Shown: in pieces, positions 13,461-14,453 of the stretch
Numbering within the stretch: position 1 is the first letter of the stretch
Layout of the letters: every line of letters starts with the position of its first letter
Assembly (NCBI GenBank): GCA_016838845.1
Contig: JAEHKV010000156.1
Coordinates: 1 to 15,957, forward strand
From: Nitrosopumilales archaeon
GTDB taxonomy: Archaea > Thermoproteota > Nitrososphaeria > Nitrososphaerales > Nitrosopumilaceae
Direction: 5' to 3'
DNA length: 15,957 nucleotides
The notes under the pieces: generated by a model
What the model was told of the DNA's origin: nothing
Databases searched by the model: none
What the model saw: the letters and a program-made list of their open reading frames with translations, nothing else
Position numbers and translations under genes: made by a program

Positions 13461-14453
13461 TTATTTTTTAGATTTGAGGTGCTTGTGCAGTTTGTAAGCA
13501 AAAGTGGTAGGTGCAACAATATACAATCCAAGATTTAATGCAATGACTGAAATTCCAAATCCTAATACTTCAACTTCGGAACCACTATCTGCTAAGGTCA
13601 TAATAGATAATGAAGAAATCATTGGTGTGATGAATAGTTTTACTGCTTCCTTGAAGATTGGACTTTGACGTTCCAAATCAGCTATAGCTGGTGAGAAAGA
13701 GTAATAGAATTGGTTGAATGAAGTCATAAATGCAGATCCTGAAGAAGTACTAAGAACAGTATTATCCCTAATTTCTCTAAGGAATTGAACTTGTGGTGCT
13801 AATTCTGAGCCATATGTTGCAGTTGCAATGAGACATCCTCCTCCGCCTTGTGGTTCTTCAACAACACAAATACCATTCTTTAGAATGGTTCCTGCACCAC
13901 AAACTGGTTCAGGCTCTGGTTCAGGTTCTGGTTCAGGCTCCGGCTCTGGTTCAGGCTCCGGCTCTGGTTCAGGCTCCGGCTCTGGTTCAGGTACAAATCC
14001 AGAAGCTGTAAATGAAAATGTGGTTGTCATTTTTTGAGCTCCATATTGTGCAGTAATTTTATAATCTCCACTGGCATTCATTGTTCCTCCAGCAGTAATA
14101 TTATGAGAAAATTGGCCGCTTGCGTCTGGTGTTACTTGTGCAATTCCAACTATATTGCCGGTTGGTCCAGAAATTATTATGGTAAGAGCTTGGTTAGGAA
14201 AAGATGCACTAATAGTTCCAACGTTTCCTGAAATTGTTATAGTGTCTTTCTCATTATAAGATGGCTGATCAGTTTCTATCGAAAAAGCTTGTGGACCAGA
14301 ATCGCCATCAAATGCGCTAACACATTCTCCTTCAACATTCCTTATTTCGCCAACAGGACACCCAGCAAATTGAGCAAATGCAGACGCTGAAAATCCATAG
14401 GACAAAATTGAGATAACCATCATTACTAATAATAGGCGCCCTGGAATAGTCAT
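13461..14453 (-). CDS. Secreted modular protein: array-type N-module + P(EP)14 linker + Cys-containing segment + CFI-box-like C-terminal domain with terminal TM helix
   Basis: Signal peptide ending SASAFA. N-module at aa ~56-148 ([18 protein letters not shown]...[49 protein letters not shown]), homologous to the PEFG paralogs. P(EP)14 at aa 155-183. [12 protein letters not shown], then [29 protein letters not shown] (CFI-box-like). Terminal hydrophobic helix and [10 protein letters not shown] tail. Confidence 0.85.
13905..13991 (-). repeat. In-frame hexanucleotide microsatellite encoding P(EP)14, with an 18-nt higher-order unit
   Basis: On the plus strand there are 14 consecutive units of the form NGGYTC. 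Units 5-13 form three exact copies of tggttcaggctccggctc. Confidence 0.9.

Follow-up and report, generated by a model that had tools for sequence, protein, structure and literature searches.

An Ig-like module shared by a CFI-box-CTERM protein and a linked array of PEFG-CTERM proteins in Nitrosopumilaceae

The window, which is the whole analyzed stretch of 15,957 nucleotides from a Nitrosopumilales archaeon, contains a gene at 13461..14453 on the minus strand and an array of four genes for PEFG-CTERM proteins at 3960..7505 on the plus strand. The former was listed as an open reading frame (ORF) of 330 amino acids (aa) in the program-made ORF list, with an ATG start and a stop codon at 13461-13463. 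Its product matches the NCBIfam family NF041770 (CFI_box_CTERM) and is referred to as the CFI protein; positional orthologs of the gene were found in about 35 Nitrosopumilaceae loci. The array, which was delimited by TIGR04296 matches, module alignment and conserved synteny, encodes five copies of an immunoglobulin (Ig)-like module, and the CFI protein carries a further copy. The initial annotation had described a secreted 330-aa ORF on the opposite strand about 6 kb from the array, and this ORF was found with the gene beginning 5,956 bp past the array end.

From the N-terminus to the C-terminus, the CFI protein is composed of a signal peptide, a Cys hairpin, the Ig-like module, a P(EP)14 stalk, a second Cys hairpin, a Gly linker, the CFI-box-CTERM domain, a transmembrane (TM) helix and a basic tail, all encoded on the minus strand. 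The predicted Sec signal peptide (aa 1-27; 14373..14453) was called by hydropathy and inspection and shows Arg6, a hydrophobic core (Kyte-Doolittle mean of 1.5-2.0 for windows starting at aa 1-10) and an A-x-A-type end (SASAFA, cut before Q). The N-terminal Cys hairpin (aa 32-44; 14322..14360) was placed by its Cys positions and forms two short strands in the AlphaFold2 (AF2) model of aa 27-155. The module follows at aa 57-148 (14010..14285), the stalk at aa 155-183 (13905..13991) and the second Cys hairpin at aa 185-196 (13866..13901), the latter being modeled as a beta-hairpin (residues 4-13 of the tail model) with the ortholog consensus CGxGTxLVNGxC. According to the tail alignment, an acidic/Gly linker (aa 197-206; 13836..13865) lies directly N-terminal of the invariant Cys207.

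The CFI-box-CTERM domain as delimited by NF041770 (aa 207-279; 13617..13835) starts with Cys207, followed by LREIRD and YYSFSP. The topology call, based on hydropathy and AF2, places a C-terminal TM helix of 25 hydrophobic residues at V296-Y320 (13494..13568; mean hydropathy up to 2.15), which is kept in all paralogs. The last 10 residues (aa 321-330; 13464..13493) form a basic tail that is expected to be cytoplasmic; basic ends are found likewise in paralogs and in bacterial members of the family. The Cys residues of the protein are located at positions 32, 44, 185, 196 and 207. The sequence strings that the initial annotation quoted for the Cys-containing segments are all present in the translation, and so are the extra N-terminal Cys pair (C32 and C44) and the terminal TM helix with basic residues that it had proposed.

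The CFI-box-like nature proposed for the C-terminal region was borne out by a search with hidden Markov models (HMM). NF041770 matched aa 207-279 over model positions 1-69 of 69 with 74.7 bits (E-value 3.6e-21), well above the curated cutoff of 40 bits. The signature Cys-[FL]-Ile-Ala-Thr-Ala is present as C207-L-I-A-T-A and its columns are invariant in 69 paralogs, with CFIATAAYG in bacterial members. The match is located at the C-terminal end of an exported protein and is followed by the TM helix and a basic cluster. For comparison, one genome per species was scanned, resulting in 417 confirmed stretches; all locus-based counts (cargos, synteny, neighbors) rest on the best 80 of these, which belong to Nitrosopumilus, Nitrosarchaeum, Nitrosotenuis and relatives. 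All 69 full-length CFI proteins from the 80 loci pass NF041770, and the Leu instead of Phe in the motif is shared by all 80 Nitrosopumilaceae tails in which the motif was found.

By this profile match, the CFI protein falls into a curated family as an ordinary member for which a name already exists, which is not surprising. No TIGR04296 (PEFG-CTERM) match was obtained at E ≤ 1 in the 330-aa protein, in line with the claimed absence of this signal. The literature search returned no paper containing 'CFI-box' or 'CFIATAAYG', so that the earlier statement of an unknown function of the CFI-box holds.

Whereas NF041770 covers aa 207-279 only, conservation extends through the TM helix to the protein end. 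The AF2 model of the tail (aa 186-330; 121 sequences) reached a predicted local distance difference test score (pLDDT) of 76.9 and a predicted template modeling score (pTM) of 0.57. Helices were predicted at aa 219-231, 237-263, 265-287 and 293-329. The first three lie in blocks with a pLDDT of 81-91 and are amphipathic (hydrophobic moments of 0.76-1.22), and the last one includes the V296-Y320 core and the basic end. The tail is thus predicted to be helical, preceded by the beta-hairpin at the second Cys hairpin. The stretch aa 199-213 was modeled with low confidence, the pLDDT of the CLIATAT motif being below 50. The two halves of the protein were modeled separately. A single alignment of the full-length protein together with the homologs of its N- and C-terminal parts had been set aside because P0162, which is 93% identical in the module, was listed at 33%, and this was taken as a sign of misalignment.

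In the sequence profile search, no PDB relative of the tail was found. De novo designed TIM barrels (E 7e-5 to 8e-4) were judged to be spurious helix-composition matches, as they contained no significant stretch. A Foldseek search of the tail model against the PDB gave a best E-value of 4.6, and no fold was assigned because no match fell below this value. Autoprocessing of the Hint/Hedgehog-intein kind, which is raised by the Gly-Cys-[FL] junction, was rejected, since the tail is predicted to be all-helical and not to have the all-beta Hint fold. Furthermore, Pfam and NCBIfam gave no Hint or intein match for the CFI protein, and no conserved His, as required for a Thr-x-x-His block, was found between Cys207 and the TM helix in the 69 paralogs. 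Hedgehog/intein processing would be only a remote mechanistic analogy for this junction and not a family assignment.

The initial annotation had placed a sixth copy of the array module at about aa 56-148. BLASTP of the module gave 30-40% identity across 70-97 aa to all five PEFG copies, and the pairwise identity in the module alignment was 28-35%. In a profile-profile comparison using hhalign, the five-copy profile matched the CFI copy with a probability of 98.7% (E 1.8e-16, 88 columns). An HMM built from the five copies scored 67.9 bits on the real sequence and mapped to aa 57-148, whereas none of 2,000 shuffles exceeded 9.4 bits. By these profile comparisons, the sixth copy is homologous at aa 57-148 and the module of the CFI protein is a diverged paralog of the array module. 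As a difference in detail, a Leu-Trp pair found without exception in the five PEFG copies is replaced by Thr-Met and a one-residue gap in the CFI copy (aa 122-128, window 14070-14090). This loss is common to loci L001, L017 and L075, and PLWK is kept in most other CFI orthologs.

The AF2 model of aa 27-155 (108 aligned sequences) is an all-beta sandwich with a pLDDT of 84.8. Its best PDB match in Foldseek was the macroglobulin (MG) domain MG2 of alpha2-macroglobulin (2p9r; E 9.6e-6, TM-score of 0.76 normalized to the target), followed by many MG domains of C3/C5. Together with hhalign and the HMM, these models define an Ig-like, MG-type beta-sandwich. Pfam MG2 (PF01835) scored 14.2 bits on the CFI protein, below its gathering threshold of 32.8 bits, and 18.4 and 29.9 bits on two PEFG paralogs, which is also below the threshold.

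The four array proteins (3960-4775, 4840-5694, 5760-6629 and 6699-7505, plus strand) all pass TIGR04296, with 38.9-43.0 bits compared to a cutoff of 25. In three of the four (3960-4775, 5760-6629 and 6699-7505), a second domain of about 100 aa is located between the module and the PEFG motif; it ends in ...GTEEIEIIGTF[VA]IPEFG or ...GDSDIEVIGTFIIPEFG and has no family match. The remaining protein (4840-5694) has two modules in place of this domain. A PEFG1-like fragment, P0124, which is an ortholog of the 3960-4775 protein, carries the NCBI label 'copper-binding protein, partial'. For the 3960-4775 protein, this label was not supported by NCBIfam or Pfam models; it may still point to what the module does in these copper-dependent archaea. 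PEFG-CTERM proteins have been detected in Nitrosopumilus proteomes and were increased 4-10-fold under H2O2 stress (PMC6593220).

The claimed 29-residue P(EP)14 linker is exact: a regular expression count placed the run at aa 155-183. The corresponding DNA is a 6/12/18-bp tandem repeat at 13904-13992, and in Pfam the EP run gave a repeat-driven Trypan_PARP match. Pro-rich runs between module and anchor are present in every ortholog; they are EP-, TP- or PP-rich and range between 7 and 50 residues with a median of 36. Among species, the EP-coding repeat varies widely in length and unit (EP, TPEPEP, PPPP). Many public copies of the CFI gene are fragments that start in or just past the repeat, or are labeled 'partial', and short-read assemblies presumably tend to break at this position.

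A Cys hairpin of 12-13 residues (approximately C-[GP]-x-G-[TQ]-x-L-x-N-G-x-C) occurs in the window at 14322-14360, 13866-13901 and 6221-6256. The last of these is CGSSELSATGAC in the third PEFG protein, so that the hairpin is found in CFI as well as in PEFG-CTERM proteins. C-x(10-11)-C loops like the N-terminal hairpin recur 1-8 times in orthologs, and in some of them (L012, L019, L021) the hairpin is repeated up to eight times with Pro-rich spacers in between. No family model was found for it.

With the tail alone as query, 5,042 homologs were obtained in a 90%-clustered protein database, the closest being from Nitrosopumilaceae. Several close homologs are already named 'CFI-box-CTERM domain-containing protein' by NCBI, e.g., P0111 of Nitrosopumilus adriaticus. 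Among representatives at 50% identity, 8,927 clusters matched at E ≤ 1e-3, of which 1,348 reached E ≤ 1e-30; the best 150 of these representative clusters have the match at the protein C-terminus or within about 30 residues of it. Several genomes carry three or four CFI paralogs.

The Ig-like module was found in 41 of the 83 CFI ORFs from the 80 loci (40-67 bits). The typical order in these orthologs is signal peptide, optional Cys hairpins, module, Pro-rich run, CGxGTxLVNGxC, GGG and tail. Other cargos included a cyclophilin peptidyl-prolyl isomerase with a PsbP-like domain (10 ORFs), DsbA-like thioredoxin (3), NHL/beta-propellers (2), fn3 giants (2), FG-GAP repeats (1) and PstS (1; L070). 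Between paralogs with unrelated cargos, the tail is 64-87% identical. The locus-based proportion of 41 in 83 is the usable count of module-bearing CFI ORFs. In a census of the anchors of module-bearing proteins, 67 of the 120 matches listed end in PEFG-CTERM and most others look like fragments, a result that is biased because no listed match is longer than about 1.75 times the query, so that CFI proteins of at least 300 aa could not appear.

Bacterial proteins named CFI-box-CTERM by NCBI were retrieved from Thermodesulfobacteriota, Dehalococcoidia and Nitrospiraceae. The bacterial query was a probe constructed on the motif, and the evidence consists only of the real proteins retrieved and their NCBI names. 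Most of the members examined show a poly-Gly run, CFIATAAYG, LRxFRD and YYxxSPP, followed by a hydrophobic helix and an Arg-rich end. In a few, the sequence stops before the helix or the Gly run is missing. The CFI-box family spans both prokaryotic domains, and the combined cargo and homology data show the CFI tail as a portable C-terminal module on many unrelated exported cargos in archaea and bacteria.

Six genes are located between the array and the CFI gene, encoding LarE, LarC, malate dehydrogenase, LarB, a B12/radical-SAM-like protein and a 107-aa ORF. The initial annotation had assigned array and CFI gene to the same locus; they are indeed linked, but they do not form one operon, because these six unrelated housekeeping genes intervene. 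The order CDF - CFI gene - 107-aa ORF - radical SAM - LarB - malate dehydrogenase - LarC - LarE - PEFG array was found in about 35 loci of different species, and the CFI gene is therefore a positional ortholog across Nitrosopumilaceae, where it is single-copy, conserved and fixed in position. Judged by this synteny, the presence of one module on two C-terminal ends is an old, Nitrosopumilaceae-wide feature. The earlier claim that one module is routed to two putative attachment systems thus stands with regard to the pairing, which is not peculiar to this window. As a 'natural experiment', the pairing offers a ready comparison for mature C-termini, but it is confounded because the CFI and PEFG copies share only 28-35% identity and the former is accompanied by the EP stalk and two Cys hairpins.

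Further observations concern the neighboring genes. The genes for the CDF cation transporter and the CFI protein are separated by a further gene, encoding a secreted protein of about 1,062 aa, in 36 related loci, among them L001, the closest relative (e.g., L006:6160-9360 and L001:1-1935). No trace of this further gene was found in the window (14454-14646), in which the divergent CDF and CFI genes are about 190 bp apart. It is likewise missing in L017 and L075, and its presence is lineage-variable. A gene of the malate/lactate dehydrogenase family at 9646-10560 has the nickel-pincer cofactor genes LarE, LarC and LarB on its two sides (block 7530-11375), an arrangement that is conserved across Nitrosopumilaceae; within the window, no LarA-type user enzyme was found. 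The 522-aa protein (11513-13081) gave weak B12-binding/radical-SAM matches (52 bits, cutoff 251) and is 80-90% identical across the family. The 107-aa ORF (13084-13407) has no family match and is 66-81% identical. Both are tightly linked to the CFI gene.

We favor the interpretation, with a probability of roughly 60%, that the CFI tail retains exported proteins on the outer side of the cytoplasmic membrane and that the stalk projects the Ig module. After Sec export and removal of the signal peptide, the last helix would stay in the cytoplasmic membrane with the basic tail inside, and the three amphipathic CFI helices would form a membrane-proximal base, at the membrane surface or within it. 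With about 29 residues, the EP stalk would span an estimated 9 nm if it is polyproline-II-like, so that the Ig module would be held out in the space beneath the S-layer. The PEFG-CTERM paralogs would show the same fold without a stalk via a presumed archaeosortase-type signal. Retention at the outer face is favored because folding catalysts and a phosphate-binding protein must work beside the membrane, because C-terminal TM anchors are common in archaea and because the CFI tail itself finishes with a TM helix and basic residues. Among archaeal binding proteins and enzymes, membrane attachment through a C-terminal TM segment, with a stalk or linker in front of it, is common (PMC3387779).

Several properties of the tail weigh against a simple anchor. 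About 35 positions are invariant in the 69 paralogs, including many polar ones (C, T, E, Q, R, D, N, Y), and the domain is conserved from Bacteria to Thaumarchaeota; a plain anchor needs neither. The invariant Cys is unpaired, as the Cys count is odd in 39 of 40 orthologs and 79 of 80 tails contain exactly one. Gly or Ala precedes it in every case (GGG in 65 of the 80 tails), and the Cys motif is the one stretch of the tail model with low confidence. The unpaired Cys, the preceding Gly/Ala, the invariant polar residues and the low model confidence at the motif hint at partner recognition or covalent modification. Cys207 after GGG could form an intermolecular disulfide, carry a lipid or serve as a processing site.

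These same properties would be explained if the CFI-box were a true sorting or processing signal, as are the PEP-CTERM/exosortase, PGF-CTERM/archaeosortase and GlyGly-CTERM/rhombosortase pairs. A dedicated enzyme would recognize GGG-C[FL]IATAAYG, cleave near Gly-Cys and attach the cargo covalently, e.g., by a lipid on the Cys, and the helices and the TM segment would be discarded. The lone Cys behind Gly/Ala, the frequent GGG and the many invariant polar positions fit such a signal, as do the unpacked motif of the AF2 monomer, the poly-Gly-Cys layout, TM helix and Arg-rich end of bacterial members, and the choice of a '-CTERM' style name, used for sorting signals, by NCBI curators. However, Cys207 precedes the start of the TM helix (V296) by about 90 residues, whereas the PEFG motifs in the window abut the TM helix. 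In other known tripartite signals the motif directly adjoins this helix, and the CFI protein lacks the geometry of the PEP-CTERM, PGF-CTERM and LPXTG types, with the motif within a few residues of the TM segment. Clustering of the ORFs within 6 kb of CFI genes in the 80 loci gave recurrent neighbors from one orthologous neighborhood only and none common across cargo types; two bacterial contexts (L081, L082) contained Ig-like/adhesin and polysaccharide genes and no recurrent enzyme candidate. In addition, the enzyme would have to work on archaeal and bacterial lipids alike, and removal of the tail would waste a highly conserved domain of 125 aa. We therefore regard a cleaved signal as a doubtful explanation, although it is the one to be taken most seriously beside retention at the membrane. 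A broader version is somewhat less probable still: the CFI-box may be an uncharacterised attachment system of Bacteria and Archaea whose Gly-Cys junction is a covalent site (cleavage, lipidation, thioester or thioether), served by a partner enzyme or by the helical domain itself. If true, it would be the main tether of cyclophilin, DsbA and PstS beneath the S-layer in Nitrosopumilaceae, and the stalked Ig protein, held in the same way, could link the membrane to the S-layer.

Such a link can also be proposed as an addition to membrane retention rather than a replacement of it. The stalked protein would then be a spacer or tether: rooted in the membrane by its CFI base, it would reach across a distance given by the EP rod and bind the inner S-layer face with its MG-like module, e.g., at the unresolved last Ig-like domain of the S-layer; both the tether role and this arrangement seem improbable. 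The single-copy, positionally fixed gene and the Pro-rich run in every ortholog are in agreement with it. For N. maritimus, S-layer anchoring has been stated as open, with the speculation that the tenth Ig-like domain binds cell-envelope molecules (PMC11153153), and the archaeal S-layer protein 7ptp appeared at rank 40 among the Foldseek matches of the module. On the other hand, an Ig-like fold match is generic, the several-fold variation of stalk length among species is odd for a fixed spacer, and the same module occurs on PEFG-CTERM proteins without a stalk. It may finally be asked if the resemblances are due to chance or composition, since Pfam gave only sub-threshold Ig-like matches and the repeat-driven hit on the EP run. 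This is hardly conceivable in view of the NF041770, hhalign and shuffle-controlled HMM scores, which refute it, and of the number of tail homologs.

Ammonia-oxidising archaea are among the most abundant ocean microbes, and the space between their membrane and S-layer is poorly known. With at least 1,348 clusters (50% identity) containing a close copy and several paralogs per genome, the CFI tail ranks among the major C-terminal devices of these organisms. It is carried by folding catalysts, a phosphate-binding protein and large adhesin-like proteins, and the same layout is found in bacteria. Shuffling of surface domains between anchors is common; the conserved pairing of one module with two ends provides a handle for the proteomic mapping of mature C-termini.

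Compared to other members of NF041770, nothing defining differs in the CFI protein: the same Cys-[LF]-Ile-Ala-Thr-Ala follows a Gly run, and LRxxRD, YYxxSP, the C-terminal position, the TM helix and the basic end are all shared. With the PEFG-CTERM (TIGR04296) proteins of Thaumarchaeota it shares the N-terminal Ig-like module and the conserved neighborhood, and both are exported and end in a TM helix with basic residues. The PEFG proteins have no EP stalk, and their motif stands immediately next to the TM helix; the CFI protein has no PEFG motif and about 90 aa of conserved helical domain between Cys and TM helix. The module at aa 57-148 has the same predicted MG-type beta-sandwich fold as the MG domains of human alpha2-macroglobulin and complement C3/C5, but it is a single domain without thioester or bait region, and the likeness is therefore one of fold and not of family membership. 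The EP run gave low-scoring matches to TonB models and the TonB polyproline region, all far under the cutoffs, so that the likeness to the rigid (EP)n/(KP)n spacers of the TonB type is compositional only; by analogy, the run probably plays a similar role as an extended spacer.

A parallel to the favored retention at the membrane is found in the binding proteins of Sulfolobus and Aeropyrum and in the S-layer stalk of Sulfolobales, which are likewise composed of a signal peptide, an extracellular domain, an extended linker and a C-terminal TM helix (PMC3387779). The PstS binding protein with a CFI tail parallels these TM-anchored proteins. Anchors of the Sulfolobus/Aeropyrum type are simple TM segments after Ser/Thr-rich glycosylated linkers, whereas the CFI tail has, in addition, a strongly conserved domain of three helices and an invariant Cys that is free.

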